A stretch of DNA of 64,000 nt from an uncultured Chloroflexia bacterium. GTDB lineage: Bacteria; Chloroflexota; Chloroflexia; QHBQ01; JADMIH01. Below are positions 2,845 to 58,130 of the stretch, one piece after another; the first letter of the stretch is position 1, and every line of letters starts with the position of its first letter. The stretch spans positions 189,207-253,206 of the forward strand of contig CAWINE010000005.1 of assembly GCA_963837315.1 (NCBI GenBank), written 5' to 3'. The notes under the pieces were generated by a model. That model searched no databases. It saw only the letters and a list, made by a program, of their open reading frames with translations, and was not told the DNA's origin. The translations under genes were made by a program, and so were the position numbers.

Positions 2845-3081
2845 ATGATTATGAACAGCGATTACCACAAGATAATAACCATCGAACCCGGCAAACGGGG
2901 TGGTAAGCCCGTCATCAGGGGTATGCGCATCACCGTCTACGATGTGCTATCCTACCTCGCGGCAGGGATGACACAGGAGCAAATACTCGAAGACTTCCCA
3001 TTTCTCACAGGAGAGGATATTCGAGCCTGCCTCAGCTATGCAGCCGATCGGGAACGGCAAACAACTGTAGCGGTTGAGTGA
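2845..3081 (+). CDS. DUF433 family protein (antitoxin-like)
   Basis: 'GKRGGKPVIRGMRITVYDVLSYLAAGMTQEQILEDFPFLTGEDIRA' matches the DUF433 signature. It overlaps the next ORF by 4 nt. Confidence 0.7.
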   Translation: MIMNSDYHKIITIEPGKRGGKPVIRGMRITVYDVLSYLAAGMTQEQILEDFPFLTGEDIRACLSYAADRERQTTVAVE

Positions 3082-3467
3082 GATTACTTCTCGACCAAAA
3101 CCTGTCCCCTCGCCTTGTCGCGCGCCTTGCTGACTTGTATCCGCAGATTAGGCGAAGCGACGGACTTAGTCTGACCTACGCACGACGTAAATTTGGTCGT
3201 TATACGCGATCTGATTTTAATGATAAGCCTGAGGCTATCCCCGTAATTTGGATCAGCAGGTATTCGCAAGATCGTACGCATCACTACGATGCTGTTATCG
3301 ATTTTGCGAAGGATAGAGCGTTGTTCTTGCTCATAGTAGCGAATGAACATACCTCAATCCGGAAAGCAATTCGGTGGCAGCGAGGCCCTCGACCATCTGC
3401 CCTGGAGGGGACCCTCTCTGATTTTACAATCGCGGTATACCTGCTTAGTCAACCCGCATCGAGCTGA
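3078..3467 (+). CDS. DUF5615-like / PIN-like protein, partner of the DUF433 gene; the C-terminal part is atypical and may be frameshifted
   Basis: The N-terminus 'MRLLLDQNLSPRLVARLAD' is the typical DUF5615 start. The rest diverges from the family. Confidence 0.45.
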   Translation: MRLLLDQNLSPRLVARLADLYPQIRRSDGLSLTYARRKFGRYTRSDFNDKPEAIPVIWISRYSQDRTHHYDAVIDFAKDRALFLLIVANEHTSIRKAIRWQRGPRPSALEGTLSDFTIAVYLLSQPASS

Positions 3468-3574
3468 ACTTCGCCCTGAAAATGAGATGACAGCTGCAGC
3501 GATGGCCGCTATAACCGGGTGGGCTCGACCAGAGCTTGAAGTCTGCCGCCTGGACGTGAGCGCGAACTGGGAAA

Positions 3575-4853
3575 TCACCGTCGAGAACATTCAGGCCGAA
3601 ATGCAGTGCCACGCAACTTCAAGCAGCCTGTAAGACCTCGTTCGTCTGCGGCGTCCGATTTCTGCCGGGCAGCGAGCGCCAATGCACCGATGCCGAGCAG
3701 AGTGAGCACGGCTGCAGCGGGGAACACCAGAAAGATATTTACGGGTGCGAGCACGCTGCCGATGGCAGGACCCACCGCTGAGCCGAGGTTCACAGGCAGA
3801 TAAGCGAACGTCATTACCCGCCCGCGCACCCTGCTCGGGGTTGATGTGGATAGCACGCTGAACGATAGGGCGAACAAGCCGGAGCTAAGGCCGTTGATGG
3901 CTGCCCAAAGTATCGTGAATGTCACAAGGTCGCCGGACAGTGACGGGAGCGGCCAGAGAGCCACCGCAACAGCGGCACCCACAAATAATACGCGCCAGTA
4001 GCCCACCCTGTCGCCTAACCAACCCAGCACAGGACTTAGAACAAGGGTGGTCAGGCCCCCCACGCCCAGTACTATACCTATAGCCGTGCCCGGCTCGTTG
4101 CCATTGTATAGCGCGCCAACGGCGATGGGCACGTACGTGAAGGCGAGCATCCACCCGGCGAAAAGGAGGAAGAGAGCCGGGAAGAGCACCCTCAACCGCT
4201 GTGGACCTCCCGATAATGCCTACCGATGAAACCGCCATGCTCATCAGCGAGCCGCGATCCGTGCCTTTGAAGTTATCCTTATAGCCGAAGGTCATGGCCA
4301 GGATGGTCATGGCCATGAGAGCCACATCCACAGCCATGAGGGCGGGAAAGCCCCAGGCGTCAACGATAGGCCCACCAACCAGCGGTCCCAGGAACGCCCC
4401 CAGCGGCGACGCGCCCGCCATAATCGAGAGGGACAGCCCGAGACGCCGCGCAGGTGCTCTCTCCGAAAGGGTGGTCATCATCAGACCACTGTTGCCGAGC
4501 GACAGGCTCATTACCGACCGCGCCAGCACGAAGAGCCAGATATTGCCGGCCAGCATCGCCACCACCCCGGCCAACATGTGCGCCACGAATGAGCGCACGA
4601 TCACCGGCTGGCGGGCAAAGCGGTCAGCGAGCGCACCCCAGAACGGCAGGAACGGCAGGCCCACCAGGCTGGAAATGGCAACGATAGCCCCCGTCCATGT
4701 CTTTATATCGGCGGGATCGGTAATGCCAAGCCTGGGCAGAAAGATGGGCGTAAAGGCCCCCATCTGGCTCCAGAACGCCGCCTCCACCAGGCTCGCCAGC
4801 GTAAAGAGCGTCAGCAGCCACACCCAGGAATCGCGCCGTGATTGCGTGGTCAT
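3575..4853 (-). CDS. MFS transporter with an apparent frameshift near 4200
   Basis: ORFs 3885..4853 and 3575..4195 are consecutive 6-TM halves in different frames. 'GALADRFARQPV' is the MFS motif A region. Confidence 0.7.
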
Positions 4854-7475: not shown

Positions 7476-7629
7476 GGGACGTAGTTGTCAGTTGTCAGTT
7501 GTCAGTTGTCAGTAGACTCAGTGACCAGTGACCAGTGACCGGTGACCGGTGAGGGTAAGCAGTAAGCAGTAAGCAGTTACAAGCGGGCTACTGACAACTG
7601 ACAACTGACCAACTCGCGTATAATATCCC

Positions 7630-13430: not shown

Positions 13431-13537
13431 GACGAATTACGAATTACGAATTACGAATTACGAATTGCAGATTATCCTTTCCAGTATATAATTGACCCAG
13501 ACCCGATAATTCGTAATTCGTAATTGCTGGAGTCGCT

Positions 13538-13861
13538 ATGGACGTGCTGACGAGGAACTGGCTGAGAATCCTGATATGGGCGGTGGTTCTGGGCGTGATC
13601 GCTACCTTCATCGCTGATTGGGGTGAGTGGGACCGCTTTCTGCTCAACTTGCTCTGGCGGATATTGATAACGGCCGCGGGGGGCGTGGTCGGGTTGCTGC
13701 TGAATTTTTTCGCGGGCAACTATGTAGGCATGGGCACCAACGTTATCGAGAGCATGGGTATTGTCAAGTTCAGCAACGACACACAGAGGAAGATAGAAAA
13801 CTCCTTCATCTTTGTCGGCGCGCTGGTTGCCGCCATTGCGGCGGCGATTTTTATTCGCTAG
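13538..13861 (+). CDS. hypothetical small membrane protein
   Basis: 107 aa with 3 predicted TM helices. Confidence 0.35.
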   Translation: MDVLTRNWLRILIWAVVLGVIATFIADWGEWDRFLLNLLWRILITAAGGVVGLLLNFFAGNYVGMGTNVIESMGIVKFSNDTQRKIENSFIFVGALVAAIAAAIFIR

Positions 13862-13877
13862 TGTAGAATCAGGACAC

Positions 13878-14100
13878 CTGATAGGGAAAGAGGGGTGTAG
13901 CGGTGCTCCCCTGGCGGGGGTTTGGGGGTGTCGCCACATCTCTCGATACTCTAAGTTGGGAACGGGTGCAGGGGCTCCCTGCCGGGGCTGGGGGTGTCCC
14001 CCATAAGTCTCCACTCCCTAAGTTGGAAGGGGGTGCAGGGGAGCGCCCCTGCAGGGGGTTTGGGGGTGTCCCCCAAATCTCTCTATTCCCTGACAGGTGG
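13878..14100. repeat. three tandem copies of a GC-rich double-hairpin REP-like element of about 70 bp
   Basis: The unit is 'gtgcaggggNNNcccctgc(c/a)ggggNtttgggggtgtcccccaNatctc...', containing two palindromes (ctgcagggg/cccctgcag and ttgggggtgtcccccaa). The same family occurs inverted at 23395..23460 and 25795..25920. Confidence 0.7.
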
Positions 14101-16998: not shown

Positions 16999-17269
16999 GC
17001 GGTAAGCGTTATCCTCTTTTGATTCTTACAATAAAATAGCCGAGGCAGCATCCTCGGCCCCGGCTGACACCCTTAGCGAGCGACCCATTTTACGGGCGCA
17101 CTCCACATAAATAGTATCTTGAGATTATGAGAGGGAACCATAAGCTCTCTACTCTAGCTCATGCACGGGGCGAAATCACAATGCTACACGTAAAGTATAC
17201 ACCTTGCACGCATAAAATACAATACGGCGGATGATGTAGCAGGGTCTATGCAAAGTCAGTGCCTGGCGT

Positions 17270-17600
17270 GCACTCTTGCCTTTGTCATTCTGATGCGAAG
17301 CGAATAATCTCGTCGTTATAGATGATCTTGGCTTTGCACAATCCCAAGAGTATACGAGAGGGACGAGATTATTCACTTCGCTCAGTGCAATACCAAGTAA
17401 ATTGTTGGAGGAAAGAGTGCCAAGTAAGCTTTGTCATTCCGAGTGTAGCGAGGAATCACTATGGGCAGTAATATGCCTGGATCCAACCACCACCTCCCCC
17501 ACAGTGATTCCTCACTTCGTTCGGAATGACAAAAGAGAGGACGCGCTCTTATCTCCAATAATTTAGTTGGCACAGCACTCAGAATGACAAGGCGTAGTTG
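17270..17600. repeat. nested inverted-repeat (MITE-like) structure in the infA / LmbE divergent intergenic region
   Basis: The motif TTGTCATTC(C/T)GAG occurs 3 times forward (17280, 17430) and 2 times reverse (17527, 17583). Hairpin A spans 17280..17390 and hairpin B 17425..17540, each with an imperfect stem of about 30 bp. A third 13-bp hairpin lies at 17628..17680. Confidence 0.6.
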
Positions 17601-17743
17601 GGTGCCCCTTCCATGGTTCTTTCTCGACTTTGCGTCAGCCCTGATGCCTTCGCACTACGCACTATGACATCAGGGCTGACGCACTTGAAAATAGTTGCTA
17701 AACTGGTTATGTTACGCACTATGCACTACTAAAGGGGGTAAAC

Positions 17744-19525: not shown

Positions 19526-19790
19526 AACGTGAAACGTAACCGCCAAGACGCCAAGATCCGCCAAGGTCCGCCAAGGTTTTTATTGTTTAAGACCAAAAGA
19601 ATCCTCTGTGAGTCTCTGTGATTCAAACCCATAATACCCTTCGTGCTCTTCGTGCTCTTCGTGCTCTTCGTGTTTAAAACCCATAAAACCTTTGTGATCT
19701 TTGTGCCTTTGTGGTTCAAACCGTAGAATCCCTGGCGGATATTGGCGGATCTTAGCGGTGAAACAAAAAGATCGTCTATCAGTGGTGGTG
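19497..19790. repeat. composite STR element (exemplar): ACGTRAA x4, CGCCAAG x4, CTCTGTG x2, CTTCGTGCT x4, CTTTGTG x3 and TTGGCGGAT x3 arrays separated by conserved linkers
   Basis: Read directly from the sequence. The same module order recurs at 35215..35470, 47630..47880, 30016..30190, 28998..29085, 33655..33790 and 38560..38660 (inverted), with partial copies at 10585..10765 and 32690..32880. Confidence 0.8.
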
Positions 19791-29545: not shown

Positions 29546-30015
29546 GCACGCTAAACGACGAGCTCCTCGATACGATCGAGTTCCTCATTTACCGCCACCG
29601 CCTGCACACTCGCCTTCCGGTGGAGCTTGGCCCCTTGCTGGAAAGATTTGATATTCGCAGGTACAATTTCACCCCCATGACCATGGGCTTCGCGCTCGTG
29701 CGGCCCAAGGGGATGCACCTGGGTATCAACAAGAACCTCGACGTGGCAAGCCAACGAATGGCAATCGCTCACGAAGCCGCCCATATTATCGCAAACCAGC
29801 CCCACCAGATCTTCGTTTGCAAGACCAGCGATTGGTCAAAAGAGCAGGACGAGCGCGAGGCCCAGTTGATAGCAGCTTGCCTCCTCGTCCCCTTGAAGAT
29901 CGTCGCCGAAAATTACCGCGTCGGCGTGGCGAACCAACTCGCAAGAACACTAAAAGTGCCCCCCGACCTTGTTGACCTGCGCTGGTCCTTCGCGCGAGTT
30001 CATGGCGACATATAG
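29542..30015 (+). CDS. ImmA/IrrE-family zinc metallopeptidase (DUF955)
   Basis: 'IAHEAAHII' is an HExxH motif. The gene is adjacent to and overlaps the XRE gene. The listed ORF starts at 29620 but the frame is open from about 29542. Confidence 0.65.
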   Translation: MSTLNDELLDTIEFLIYRHRLHTRLPVELGPLLERFDIRRYNFTPMTMGFALVRPKGMHLGINKNLDVASQRMAIAHEAAHIIANQPHQIFVCKTSDWSKEQDEREAQLIAACLLVPLKIVAENYRVGVANQLARTLKVPPDLVDLRWSFARVHGDI

Positions 30016-30193
30016 CGGAATGCGGATTGCGGAATGCGGAATGCGGATTTACGTAACCGCCAAGACACCAAGAACGCCAAGGTTCGCTAAGGTTCTTAAA
30101 GGTGCCAGAGGAAGCAGTAAAAAACAATAAGCAGTACGGCCAGTCCGCAGTCCGCAGTCCGCATTCCGCATTCCGCATTCCGCAATTGAAAAG

Positions 30194-49574: not shown

Positions 49575-49712
49575 TTGCGGACCGTCCAATTGCGGATTGC
49601 GGATTGCGGATTAAAGTATGACCACTGACGACCAAAGAAATCAGAATACAGACCAGAGCGAATTGGAGCCGGTCAATCCGCAATCCGCAATCCGCAATCC
49701 GCAATCTAACAC
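49575..49712. repeat. inverted heptamer arrays TTGCGGA x3 ... TCCGCAA x4 forming a potential long hairpin in the moaC leader / 5' end
   Basis: Read directly. The moaC reading frame stays open back through the TCCGCAA array. Confidence 0.7.
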
Positions 49713-56867: not shown

Positions 56868-56989
56868 CGTTGTCTTCTCCAAGAAGTGAGAAGTGAGAAG
56901 TGAGAAATGAGAAATGAGATGTGAGATCGTCGACCCTGATTCCATTTCTCTTCGTCGACCTCTCACTTCTCATTTCTCATTTCTCATTT

Positions 56990-58130
56990 CTATAAAACCC
57001 GATACGGCGCGGCGTCCTGCCGCTTTAACTCGAGACCCATCCCCGGTCGAGAAAGGTCAGGGCGCAGCTCGCCATCCACCGGGTCGAGCGCACCGTCGAA
57101 GATCATATGCTCGATGCGAGCGTGGTCGTGGAAGTATTCGAGGTGCCGCAGCTTGGGCACAGAGCAGCAAGGGTGAACGTGGATAGAGGGCCCGCAGTGA
57201 GCAGATAGCGGTATAGGACGTGCCTCGCACAGCGCGCCCACTTTGAGGAAGCCGCTTATCCCCAGGCAGCGGGTAGCGTCCGCCTGTAGCACGTCCACCG
57301 CCTCCGCATCCAACATGCGCCGGAAGTAGAAAGGGTCATATCCATACTCACCTGCCGCAATGTCTATGCCTGCAGGCGCTCGGTCCCGGAGGAGACGCAA
57401 ACCTTCCAGGTCGTCCGAGGAGACCGGTTCCTCGAACCAGGTCACTCCCTGTGCTGCGAACGCCTCCGCGAAGGCTAATGCCTGCTTGCGGCTGTATGCG
57501 CCGTTGGCGTCCACGAAAAGCTCAACGTGAGGGCCGATTGCCTGCGCGGGCCGCCTTCACCCTCTCGAGGTCGATGGATGGGTCGGTGCCGATCTTCATC
57601 TTCACCCGCTTGAACCCCTGCTCGGCCCAGCCTCCCAGTTGGTCGCGCATCTGTTCTGGAGTGTAAGTGGTGAAGCCGCCGCTGCCGTAGAGTGGCACCG
57701 AGGTGCGCACGGCACCCAGGAGCGTCACCAATGGCAGGCCGAGGAGGCGGGCTTTGAGGTCCCAAAGGGCAGAGTCGACTGCCGAGATAGCCATGGCCGC
57801 GACCCCAGGGCGGCCCAGGTTGCGAATGGAACCCAGCATCGCGTCCCATGCGCCCGGTACCGCCATGGCATCGTGGCCACCAAGGAGGGTAGGAAAATTG
57901 TCAAGGATAAGCTGTGCAGTGGCGCGGTTTGCGTAGGTATAGCCGAGGCCGGTCATGTCTCCCGCGCTGACCTCCGCCACGACGATAGTGCTGTTGTGCC
58001 AGAGGTATGTGCCGTCGCCCTCCGGCGCATCGGTCGGTATCGTGTAAGCCGAAGCTCGCACCGATTCTATAGGAACGTCAATCACGGTCGCTTCTCGCGA
58101 GTTATGAGTTCTCATTATCTCCTGTCTCAT
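56990..58130 (-). CDS. enolase-superfamily enzyme (mandelate racemase / muconate lactonizing enzyme family) with an apparent frameshift near 57520
   Basis: The N-terminal capping domain and 'KMKIG' lie in 57522..58130. The C-terminal barrel ('DANGAYS', 'WFEEP', 'DIAAGE') lies in 56990..57514. Confidence 0.7.

Follow-up and report, generated by a model that had tools for sequence, protein, structure and literature searches.

In the 64-kb window, by which we mean the whole stretch of DNA analysed (64,000 nucleotides), infA and the LmbE/PIG-L (LmbE-HD) operon diverge from a long intergenic region that holds a cluster of palindromes. A promoter-like site for the LmbE/PIG-L operon lies at 17685–17713 on the plus strand (TTGAAA, 17-nt spacer, TATGTT). 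Reading and alignment of the sequence also point to a candidate infA promoter at 17194–17222 on the minus strand (TTGTAT, 17-nt spacer, TATACT). Both sites fall outside the element, and the cluster is upstream of both. The −35 box of the candidate infA promoter has three matches out of six, which is why the promoter scan left the site unlisted; in relatives, its −10 box reads TATACT or TATAAT. The LmbE/PIG-L site, downstream of the cluster, is kept in four relatives (L121, L128, L129 and L130).

In the window, the motif TTGTCATTCYGA is present at four places, and not at three as the first-pass annotation had counted. All copies are within 17282–17590, two on the plus strand (17282 and 17431) and two on the minus strand (17521 and 17579). 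The chance expectation for 64 kb is 0.44 copies, and none of 100 shuffles reached four; a scan of the rest of the 64 kb found neither another copy nor anything similar. The outermost copies, 17282 and 17579–17590, make a perfect 12-nt inverted pair with termini TG...CA. Folding of the whole cluster as RNA gave −160 and −164 kcal/mol (z −13.2 and −12.3 against shuffles), and folding as single-stranded DNA gave −82 kcal/mol (z −10.3). With a motif that is local and a region that folds far better than shuffles, the nested inverted-repeat structure reported before is real.

We consider it probable that 17283–17590 is a cluster, in part tandem and in part nested, of three partly decayed units of one repeat family (A, B nested in C, and a solo tag). 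The TGTC tags of its arms are at 17283, 17432, 17531 (minus strand) and 17589 (minus strand), and the arms of B and A alike finish in ...AATC. The left arm of unit A (17283–17309, plus strand) consists of the TGTC tag, an ATTCT stem, GA, an inserted T, a GCGAAGC mini-hairpin, GA, ATAAT and C, and is degenerate relative to the family consensus by this inserted base and one stem mismatch. The long hairpin of unit A covers 17295–17381; its stem had been put at about 30 bp, but the palindrome has 20-nt arms (17295–17314/17362–17381) with 95% complementarity around a 47-nt copy-specific spacer. The right arm of unit A (17367–17392, minus strand, reading TATTGCACTGAGCGAAGTGAATAATC) is decayed, with seven mismatches to the consensus and a tag short of 3 nt, and the right terminus of the hairpin is the decayed motif TCAG--TG-CAA at 17382–17392. 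The junction of this arm with the outer palindrome C appears to have collapsed.

Palindrome C was delineated by folds and repeat search. Its left arm (17393–17428, plus strand, beginning ACCAAGTAAATTGTTGGAGGAAAGAGTGCC) carries no tag of its own and pairs with the right arm at 17534–17578 (plus strand), so that this extra arm pair surrounds hairpin B. Unit B (17430–17533), nested in the loop of C, is an intact inverted dimer with 36-nt arms (17430–17465/17498–17533) that are 86% complementary, in line with the earlier description of this hairpin, and a 32-nt loop. Its left arm (17432–17457, plus strand, TGTCATTCCGAGTGTAGCGAGGAATC) has one mismatch to the family consensus and its right arm (17506–17531, minus strand, TGTCATTCCGAACGAAGTGAGGAATC) has two, which jointly turn a G-C pair of the mini-hairpin into A-T; the same type of pair (AU) is found at that position in 8 of 139 arms of the family. 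Only B is near consensus, while A and C are decayed. The solo tag (17579–17590, minus strand, TTGTCATTCTGA) is missing the second half of the hairpin, has eight mismatches to the full arm and pairs with 17282–17293 as the "outer TIR" pair; tandem solo tags are also found elsewhere in the family. In the arrangement we propose, dimer A would have lost its right end by decay, dimer B would sit intact in the loop of the older palindrome C, and the solo tag would close C. The peptides "CHSERSEESL / FVRNDK" are spurious, being a translation of the cluster DNA. The cluster should be masked as repeat DNA and annotated neither as an RNA gene nor as ORFs.

A separate hairpin downstream, previously noted as 13 bp long, is present but is a perfect 16-bp one (17631–17683, arms 17631–17646/17668–17683). 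It is unrelated to the repeat family and has no counterpart in the relatives. The direct repeat CGCACTAYGCACTA is at 17651 and 17715, and the loop of this hairpin echoes this 5′ UTR motif.

The cluster is an insertion at this position. It is missing in five orthologous infA/LmbE spacers with conserved synteny (L121, L122, L124, L125 and L130), and about 20 nt in the spacer of L130 correspond at this point to about 445 nt of the window. A 90%-identical relative (L129) has an element end at the same place, and a piece related to the left arm of palindrome C is present in L128. It is reasonable to suppose that this lineage of Chloroflexota acquired the cluster, between the two divergent promoters of infA and LmbE, in its recent ancestry. 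Across the relatives, the flanking DNA diverges too rapidly for the steps of insertion within 17240–17686 to be retraced. Other palindromes occupy this spot in relatives, L122 having heptamer arrays and L121 another kind of repeat. The (GTTGTCA)n heptamer arrays of the window and L122 recall the terminal TTGTCA, a resemblance that we take as coincidental.

These comparisons bear on two functional readings. The first-pass annotation had allowed for a large structured leader RNA, and a 5′ leader or cis-regulatory RNA for the LmbE-HD operon or infA would agree with the very stable predicted RNA fold and with the location in a long divergent intergenic region. However, five syntenic spacers do without the cluster, one of them being minimal, and the conserved promoter-like sites of both genes are gene-proximal of it. 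Both strands fold equally well, as a DNA palindrome would, and solo arms across the family show no preferred orientation with respect to adjacent genes (22 sense, 24 antisense). Rfam searches of the region at E ≤ 10 and of 18 canonical loci of the family at the gathering threshold returned no match apart from miRNA-hairpin noise and, elsewhere, a T-box and a tRNA; the first-pass annotation had seen no RNase P, tmRNA, SRP or 6S signatures. We see hardly any likelihood in the leader reading. A hammerhead or other ribozyme, considered for the CTGATG...GAA of unit A, was rejected as the canonical arm has no such core and Rfam is silent.

The other functional reading is that the repeats were co-opted as DNA-level regulatory or architectural sites, e.g., a cruciform-prone insulator or a protein-binding platform. 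The position exactly between two divergent promoters, arms long and perfect enough to extrude, and the other palindromes at the same spot in L122 and L121 would all be expected from it. Against this, L130 manages with its short spacer, the copies are decaying, and the fact that the palindromes of the relatives are unrelated suggests a permissive dumping ground over a selected function. We hold co-option to be very unlikely; most likely, the cluster has no role in the expression of infA or LmbE. The structure, a passenger lodged between the two promoters, matters little for the locus itself.

What gives the cluster wider interest is the family to which it belongs. Every arm is a hairpin module of 26 nt with a defined orientation, TGTC|ATTCY|GA|GCGNAGC|GA|RGAAT|C, which we read as a TGTC tag, a 5-bp covarying stem (ATTCY/RGAAT) followed by tandem G.A/A.G pairs, a GCGNAGC mini-hairpin and, 3′ of the stem, a conserved C. 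Two such arms in inverted orientation with a copy-specific spacer between them constitute a dimer. The exact arm pattern matches at least 120 stretches of the genome collection in about 16 phyla, isolate genomes included, whereas by our own arithmetic about 0.02 chance matches are expected in 596 Gb; IMG/VR holds about 100 more arm matches. Uniqueness within the 64-kb window is the one observation that would suit a fortuitous palindrome without relatives, the outcome that the first-pass annotation had tied to a lack of other copies and of covariation. Given the numerous exact matches and the shuffle statistics, that reading has practically no probability.

Among 170 arms collected with the Y and R positions of the pattern free, the innermost stem pair is T-A in 107, C-G in 45 and another combination in 18, and the remaining stem pairs also vary in a compensatory manner. 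In 139 arms gathered by protein neighbourhood, 92.9% of the cells are paired vs. 84.7% in shuffles (0/500), and double-sided changes number 101 vs. 26 (0/500). Compensatory changes are found in all seven pairs of this set, and slid controls pair at 21–52%. The TGTC tag and a C at column 29, 3′ of the palindrome, are each conserved in at least 90% of the 139 arms. In the set of 170 arms, the free base of GCGNAGC is A in 71, C in 52, T in 31 and G in 16, and in the set of 139 the two G-C pairs of the mini-hairpin covary. This loop is exactly the d(GCGNAGC) of the Hirao group, a DNA mini-hairpin that is very stable for any N (review PMC13037366); that motif is a physico-chemical one, known from phage and plasmid single-strand origins and not a repeat family, and it may have a role in the arm. 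With standard nearest-neighbour DNA parameters, a model to which GNA triloops and tandem G.A pairs are foreign, the isolated arm folds at −2.7 kcal/mol (z −0.2) and the neisserial NTS, discussed below, at −8.9 kcal/mol. In a long single strand, the hairpin between two arms would compete with the one internal to each arm.

A strict pattern picks out 56 full dimers vs. 111 solo arms, and 139 of these 167 units are intergenic. Only the 26-nt arm is conserved between copies, the spacers being copy- or lineage-specific. This is relevant to the proposal of a single classical MITE, i.e., an insertion sequence of the DDE-transposase kind reduced by deletion, with 12–13-bp TIRs at 17282 and 17590, and moved by cut-and-paste. 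The perfect outer pair with its TG...CA termini, the many copies elsewhere and the orthologous sites without the cluster are what a MITE would offer, and the family resembles Correia/NEMIS, RUP and Nezha in being small, non-coding, repeated, intergenic near promoters and bounded by inverted termini. Such elements, on the other hand, have full-length similarity, transposase-derived TIRs and target-site duplications, none of which holds for the arm family. The supposed TIR is present four times inside 310 bp, heading separate hairpin units, and the arm contains a covarying hairpin for which a transposase-binding TIR has no need. The repeats flanking 88 full dimers are of the same length as in a shuffled-partner control, so that no target-site duplication is seen beyond it. 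When the 1,771 ORFs that lie no more than 2 kb from arms at 120 loci were clustered all against all, no protein family or transposase recurred; this clustering overlooked the GIY-YIG genes described below because the gene is present in only two to three of the loci. Since the "TIRs" are conserved tags of separate hairpin units, the structure is not one 320-bp MITE. The first-pass idea of a small, repeated, non-autonomous element in a promoter region stands, and the other copies that it asked for were found at no fewer than 120 loci, but its 320-bp MITE with 13-bp TIRs is highly improbable.

A better place for the family than among MITEs is the CGTC/TGTC-tagged REP superfamily (Di Nocera, De Gregorio and Rocco, BMC Genomics 2013, PMC3733652). 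CGTC-type repeats have a CGTC or TGTC tag (also the variant CCTC), an 8–9-bp stem beginning with AT and a 4–5-nt loop, and they form inverted dimers with 20–100-bp spacers and have no dedicated transposase (PMC3733652). The arm shares with this superfamily, which includes Neisseria dRS3 and Rickettsia RPE-4/RPE-6, a terminal tag that is often TGTC. It also shares the short tail after the stem, the mainly intergenic location, the absence of a dedicated transposase and the prevalence of inverted dimers whose 20–100-bp spacers have complementary ends. Written ATTCYGAG / CGNAG / CGARGAAT, the arm has stem and loop lengths in the described range and A-T and T-A as the first pairs, but its stem positions 6 and 7 (two of eight) are G.A and A.G instead of Watson–Crick pairs. 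For CGTC repeats, the 2013 survey names five phyla, and Chloroflexota and Acidobacteriota are not among them (PMC3733652).

Mobilization of a BIME-like REP/REPIN cluster by a RAYT, an IS200/IS605-type Y1 transposase, deserves consideration for the same features. Like GTAG REPs, REPINs and BIMEs, the family has short palindromes that are extragenic, inverted dimers whose spacers vary, and tandem, nested or mosaic clusters; target duplication is lacking, and action on single-stranded DNA hairpins is plausible (PMC3733652). A single-copy associated gene flanked by repeats and the recognition of hairpins in single-stranded DNA are further points in common with GTAG REPs. The tag, however, is TGTC and not GTAG, and the gene between arms is a GIY-YIG gene and not one for an HUH Y1 transposase. 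A tblastn search with the E. coli RAYT found nothing beside arms in any fetched locus, and Di Nocera et al. (PMC3733652) did not find CGTC-type repeats on the two sides of any gene for a tyrosine transposase. We find a RAYT-driven origin very unlikely. An integron attC site was also considered and set aside, the arm having no GTTRRRY/RYYYAAC core.

The enzyme gene that does accompany the arms encodes a single-domain GIY-YIG protein of about 95 amino acids. One locus (L087) has this gene between a left and a right arm, inside the dimer, and two others (L068 and L105) have it beside arms. The surroundings of 80 metagenomic homologues show forward arms no more than 250 nt upstream in 31 of 75 and reverse arms downstream in 27 of 77 cases. 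Over the first 100 nt from the gene there are 3.5 arms per kb vs. 0–0.05 per kb beyond 500 nt, and arms are enriched about 70-fold at the ends of these genes. The associated protein matches the Pfam GIY-YIG domain (E 9e-15) and is 49% identical by BLASTP to the protein of the N. gonorrhoeae ssnA locus (E 7e-28). The tblastn hit (E 3e-18), to be read beside the criterion of E < 1e-10 for SsnA homologues in PMC11893778, falls on a single N. gonorrhoeae locus, around which there are seven NTS copies. At E ≤ 1e-10, the clade, to which the Planktothrix protein WP_083616022.1 belongs, has at least 7,981 database clusters; arm-associated proteins are 75–84% identical across more than a dozen phyla, with near-identical 26-nt arms. 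It is likely, in our judgement, that the family is the cognate repeat of this GIY-YIG clade homologous to Neisseria SsnA. No GIY-YIG homologue was found within the 64-kb window (best tblastn E 1.1), and therefore the window copies are orphan copies.

In Neisseria, the locus has the architecture NTS-ssnA-NTS (Chenal et al., Nat Commun 2025, PMC11893778). The NTS is CGTCATTCCCGCGMAVGCGGGAATCYRG, whose forward strand SsnA binds and cuts strand-specifically, only as single-stranded DNA and a few nucleotides 5′ of the tag, with no activity on double-stranded DNA or RNA (PMC11893778). Binding depends critically on the 3′ C, and cutting on the 3 nt that precede the palindrome on its 5′ side (PMC11893778). 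NTS and the broader SRM group resemble the arm in several respects: (i) an oriented hairpin whose palindrome, ATTCC...GGAAT, has an xGTC tag immediately on its 5′ side and a conserved C after it; (ii) an extragenic repeat of the hundreds-of-copies type, often clustered; and (iii) copies inverted around the gene for the GIY-YIG protein. The catalytic-motif positions of the arm clade, Y5/Y16/E64, are close to the published Y6/Y17/E64. The differences are a stem interior of tandem G.A pairs and a GCGNAGC mini-hairpin, with a much lower predicted stability, a TGTC instead of a CGTC tag, a window without an ssn gene, and a distribution mostly in Chloroflexota, Acidobacteriota, Bacteroidota and others, not Pseudomonadota. 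The published SRM search pattern (HGTCWYN(0-2)YYVSBRHN(0-5)WNVSBRGN(0-2)RNCYNB) is an operational string from 29 genomes and not a mechanistic definition (PMC11893778). The canonical arm fails it because of its tandem GA positions, the window has no match, and the NTS control passes.

By analogy with SsnA and NTS, we infer Ssn-type cleavage of the arms and any present activity in the host genome. A forward arm would fold once the DNA is single-stranded, as in replication, transformation, conjugation or repair, and the nuclease would bind the stem and the 3′ C and nick the strand a few nucleotides ahead of the tag, on its 5′ side. The form with the gene between two arms looks like the autonomous unit. 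A more speculative proposal, unlikely in our view, is that an arm-gene-arm unit such as that of L087 is a mobile element, whose GIY-YIG single-strand nickase copies the unit and gene-less dimers into single-stranded hairpin loops. If so, B nested in C, the tandem layout and the runs of solo tags elsewhere would be its footprints, and near-identical arms and proteins across more than a dozen phyla would be explained. Prokaryotes would then have a new class of transposition or homing, one that operates without a DDE, HUH, serine or tyrosine enzyme.

Taken as a family, one 26-nt module with a covarying stem and GCGNAGC is almost letter-identical across about 16 phyla, is linked to a very large and highly conserved SsnA-like GIY-YIG clade, and slips past the published Ssn-related motif search. 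The recently described Ssn/NTS system is thereby extended well beyond Pseudomonadota, the enzyme and its site become a candidate pair for tools that cut single-stranded DNA, and the question of how such repeats multiply is made sharper. Literature searches with the DNA strings and the spurious peptides retrieved nothing relevant. Compared with plasmid and phage DNA, the canonical dimer was found in four cyanobacterial plasmids and one unverified 5.6-kb contig, the repeat being unannotated in all of them, and a Planktothrix plasmid has the same arrangement of arms and GIY-YIG gene.

The palindromic structure between the divergent infA (minus strand) and LmbE (plus strand) genes is real and clearly non-random. 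The window holds four copies of TTGTCATTCYGA, two on the plus strand (17282 and 17431) and two on the minus strand (17521 and 17579), against 0.44 expected by chance and with none of 100 shuffles holding four; the first-pass annotation had counted three. The rest of the 64-kb window holds no further copy, and no more arms (oriented 26-nt hairpin modules opening with a TGTC tag) rise above shuffle noise there. Folded as RNA, the two strands of the cluster reach −160 and −164 kcal/mol (z −13.2 and −12.3 versus shuffles) and, folded as DNA, −82 kcal/mol (z −10.3). The proposed stem length of about 30 bp holds only loosely, as hairpin B has arms of 36 nt (17430–17465 and 17498–17533, 86% complementary) and hairpin A of just 20 nt (17295–17314 and 17362–17381, 95% complementary).

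Folds and base-by-base comparison parse the cluster into three units. Unit A (17283–17392) has a recognisable left arm; its right arm now ends in TCAG--TG-CAA, a decayed form of TCAGAATGACAA. Unit B (17430–17533) is intact, its arms being one and two positions off the family consensus. Around it lies an outer palindrome, C, whose loop it occupies; in C, approximately 17393–17428 pairs with 17534–17578, and a solo tag on the minus strand (17579–17590) closes the structure. The outermost inverted pair (17282 and 17579–17590), previously read as 13-bp terminal inverted repeats of one element, is a perfect match of 12 nt whose tags belong to different units. The right arm of A meets the left arm of C as CGCTCAG directly followed by TGCAATACC, which is what excision of a perfect palindrome formed by two abutting tags would leave. 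The window copies are orphan, gene-less units, of which A and C are decaying; B, near consensus, would plausibly serve as a substrate should the genome encode the cognate enzyme.

Comparison with relatives shows that the cluster is a lineage-specific insertion upstream of both promoters. No database entry is identical to the window LmbE protein; homologues (61–95% identity) were found in Chloroflexota and Chloroflexia MAGs, and the order DUF488, DUF488, DuOB, HAD, infA (minus), spacer, LmbE (plus) is kept in L121, L122, L124, L125 and L130, with spacers of 908, 565, 371, 355 and 318 nt, respectively, versus 745 nt in the window; none of the five spacers carries the tag. The infA-proximal 235 nt are conserved, as is a promoter-like site just upstream of LmbE (17685–17713, TTGAAA-17-TATGTT; L121, L128, L129 and L130), and the gap between the two is about 20 nt in L130 versus about 445 nt in the window. 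A candidate infA promoter has its −10 box, TATACT, at 17199→17194 on the minus strand (conserved as TATACT/TATAAT in relatives). Heptamer palindromes occupy the corresponding spot in L122, and a different repeat with an ORF does so in L121; L129 (90% identical) starts within an element whose right end, ...ACTCGGAATGACAAGG, is at the corresponding place, and L128 (95% identical) has a piece resembling the C arm. This differing content marks the spacer as a hypervariable landing zone. GAYGTAG-like words flank the cluster (17234–17257 and 17592–17643) and are similar to the L130 empty site, GACGTAGTGCG; 17240–17257 and 17626–17643 are 78% complementary, and the whole 17240–17592 block may have arrived as one piece.

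A separate hairpin, annotated earlier as 13 bp at 17628..17680, does exist but is a perfect 16-bp stem at 17631–17683. It immediately precedes the LmbE −35 box, occurs once in the window and is absent from L121, L128, L129 and L130. Its loop repeats the 5′ UTR motif CGCACTAYGCACTA (17715–17728), and the direct repeat reported near the LmbE start is confirmed at 17651 and 17715.

Other copies, which the first-pass annotation had proposed looking for in the same genome, occur in many other genomes. The pattern TTGTCATTCYGA-N(4,5)-AGCGARKAAT, scanned against one genome per species, matched at least 120 stretches, against about 0.02 expected by chance in 596 Gb by our own arithmetic. By record title, the matches listed include Chloroflexota, Acidobacteriota, Bacteroidota (with isolates of Mucilaginibacter, Pedobacter and Hymenobacter), Ignavibacteria/Chlorobi, Nitrospirota, Nitrospinota, Planctomycetota, Verrucomicrobiota, Desulfobacterota, Pseudomonadota (e.g., Luteimonas), Bacillota, Armatimonadota, Gemmatimonadota, Patescibacteria, Poribacteria, Bdellovibrionota and one Nanoarchaeota MAG. 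The exact arm also occurs in about 100 IMG/VR contigs; canonical copies are rare in plasmid and phage records.

Aligned in register, the matches give a canonical element, TTGTCATTCY GA GCGNAGC GA RGAATC, 20–80 nt of variable stem/loop, then GATTCY TC GCTNCGC TC RGAATGACAA. Conservation is confined to the arms, spacers being copy- or lineage-specific. Many loci hold a solo arm. A minimal 31-nt version occurs in L050, L037 and L072, and tandem arrays in L031 and L050. TGTC is preceded by T in 47% of arms and by C in 33%.

A single arm forms a hairpin of its own. With the Y and R positions left free in the search pattern, the 5-bp stem around the loop GAGCGNAGCGA is ATTCT/AGAAT in 82 arms, ATTCC/GGAAT in 35, ATCCT/AGGAT in 12, ATCCC/GGGAT in 3, and ATGCT/AGCAT, ACCCT/AGGGT and ATTTC/GAAAT in 2 each. 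A second sample, not ascertained by stem (139 arms beside GIY-YIG genes, eight stem positions as wildcards), has 92.9% of cells paired versus 84.7% in shuffles and 101 double-sided changes versus 26 (0/500 for both), with slid controls pairing at 21–52%. Compensatory changes affect 7 of 7 pairs, including both G-C pairs of the inner mini-hairpin. At its core, the loop reads GCGNAGC with N unconstrained (A 71, C 52, T 31 and G 16 arms), identical to the "mini-hairpin DNA" described by Hirao and colleagues, which is stable with any N and melts at 70–76 °C as a heptamer (PMC13037366). As a caveat, standard DNA parameters give an isolated arm only −2.7 kcal/mol (z −0.2), versus −8.9 kcal/mol for the Neisseria NTS hairpin repeat; the predicted fold is the proposed hairpin, and these parameters do not cover GNA triloops and tandem sheared G.A pairs.

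The repeat belongs to the CGTC/TGTC-tagged REPs, i.e., the Ssn-related hairpin repeats. CGTC-tagged REPs, known from five phyla and including Neisseria dRS3 and Rickettsia RPE-4/-6, have a terminal CGTC (often TGTC) tag, an 8–9-bp stem opening with A-T and T-A, a 4–5-nt loop and a short tail, form mostly inverted dimers with 20–100-bp spacers and lack a dedicated transposase (Di Nocera et al. 2013, PMC3733652). The arm fits when parsed as TGTC / ATTCYGAG / CGNAG / CGARGAAT / C, although stem positions 6 and 7 deviate as G.A and A.G. Because of these tandem GA positions, it fails the degenerate search string published for the Ssn-related motif, which the NTS control passes. NTS, CGTCATTCCCGCGMAVGCGGGAATCYRG, is bound and cut solely as ssDNA, on the forward strand alone and a few nt 5′ of the motif, by SsnA, a 94-aa single-domain GIY-YIG nuclease; binding depends critically on the C that follows the palindrome and cutting on the three bases that precede it, and loop identity is dispensable (Chenal et al. 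2025, PMC11893778). Repeats typically lie on both sides of ssnA genes, IS-like, and the system limits the transformation of N. meningitidis with NTS-bearing DNA (PMC11893778).

The large structured leader RNA offered earlier is argued against by the position upstream of both promoters, by the absence of the tag from the five orthologous spacers and by the lack of strand bias, solo arms being sense to flanking genes in 22 cases and antisense in 24. Units are intergenic in 139 of 167 cases (convergent 28, divergent 17, co-directional 69), so that contexts and orientations do not indicate an oriented RNA function. Rfam, proposed as a check on RNA identity, was silent for the window region at E ≤ 10 and for canonical copies at the gathering threshold, and we rejected an RNA element. 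The MITE idea was right about a repeated, non-autonomous, inserted element; a TIR-bounded MITE was set aside, since target-site duplication in 88 full dimers was no better than in a shuffled-partner control and no recurrent protein family was found within 2 kb of the repeat. A RAYT-REP system was likewise discarded, with no RAYT-like genes found beside the arms.

GIY-YIG genes lie next to some of the arms. A signature scan of all fetched loci found one beside arms at 3 of 120 motif-ascertained loci among the matches listed (L087, L068 and L105). In L087, the order is left arm (2983–3015), gene (3037–3372) and right arm (3343–3373), and because of this order the gene sits in the dimer spacer; a gene-less dimer lies just upstream. 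Its protein matches Pfam GIY-YIG (E 9e-15). Database relatives at E ≤ 1e-10 number at least 7,981, and 75–84% identity extends over Deltaproteobacteria, Binatia, NC10 and Anabaena. Around homologues 61–81% identical to it (80 metagenomic loci), a forward arm lies ≤250 nt upstream of the gene in 31/75, a reverse arm ≤250 nt downstream in 27/77, and both in 11/72; on the expected side, arms occur at 3.5 per kb within the first 100 nt versus 0–0.05 per kb further than 500 nt away.

In the plasmid collection, tblastn matched two N. gonorrhoeae chromosomes at a single locus each (E 3e-18); these are 2.17-Mb chromosomes labelled as plasmids in PLSDB. The ssnA locus (NZ_CP119142.1 1881019–1882673) has seven NTS copies in 1.65 kb and encodes a product that shares 49% identity with the L087 protein (E 7e-28). 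A Planktothrix plasmid carries a 74%-identical gene amid TGTCATTCTGAGTGAAACGAAGAATC-type dimers and solo tags. From the gene association and the SsnA homology, we take the family to be the hairpin cognate to a distinct Ssn clade that is very widespread and whose enzyme, by analogy with SsnA, would cut the arms as ssDNA. The window encodes no GIY-YIG homologue (best tblastn E 1.1), and Ssn-type activity in this organism would depend on an enzyme encoded elsewhere in its genome. The near-identical arms across about 16 phyla among the matches listed, together with their escape from the published search pattern, make the family somewhat more interesting than the window locus, which is of modest interest.

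The Planktothrix locus (L212, NZ_LR882964.1 18147–19825) is a defence-island context, in which the ssn-like gene and its repeats have an MmeI-type restriction-modification gene on one side and drmA, the DISARM helicase gene, on the other. Solo tags (TGTCATTCTGAG plus 8–11 nt) stand in tandem directly 5′ of full arms there (1036–1090) and in L050 (7124–7229), and in about 10 of 134 matches printed in register; repeated rounds of cutting and repair at the tag may have left them behind.

The conserved infA 5′ leader (16999–17222, minus strand; about 190 nt, with the −10 box) has a terminator-like hairpin and U-run at 17059→17038, about 40 nt ahead of the start codon; a further hairpin in it shows compensatory changes across six Chloroflexota sequences. 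The leader has no Rfam match and may be an attenuator or autoregulatory. L121 is the closest long relative (87% aa identity); downstream of its LmbE promoter (3390–3990) lies a GC-rich inverted repeat of a different type, GGGGTGTCYCCCA..., with a called 63-aa ORF inserted in the LmbE 5′ UTR. L122 has (GTTGTCA)n arrays (3750–3900) in the infA/LmbE spacer where the window has the cluster.

Elsewhere in the window, inverted arrays of tandem heptamers (GTCAGTT, AATTACG, GCGGAAT, ATTGCGG, AGAAGTG) form intergenic palindromes at 7487–7609, 13435–13525, 30012–30186, 49589–49705 and 56882–56991. Two further repeat families (19549–19757 and 13800–14100) give long spurious ORFs, one a 9-mer CGCCAAGRT palindrome yielding the peptides HEEHEEHEG and TKSTKSTK, the other translating as GGVPHKSPLPKLEGGAGERPCRGFGGVPQ. 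Three mechanical ORFs (66, 63 and 54 aa; 17176–17573) cross the cluster itself, and the peptides CHSERSEESL, VIPHFVRNDK and VIPRYTRNDK from those at 17382–17573 (minus) and 17402–17566 (plus) are translated repeat arms, typical spurious gene calls.
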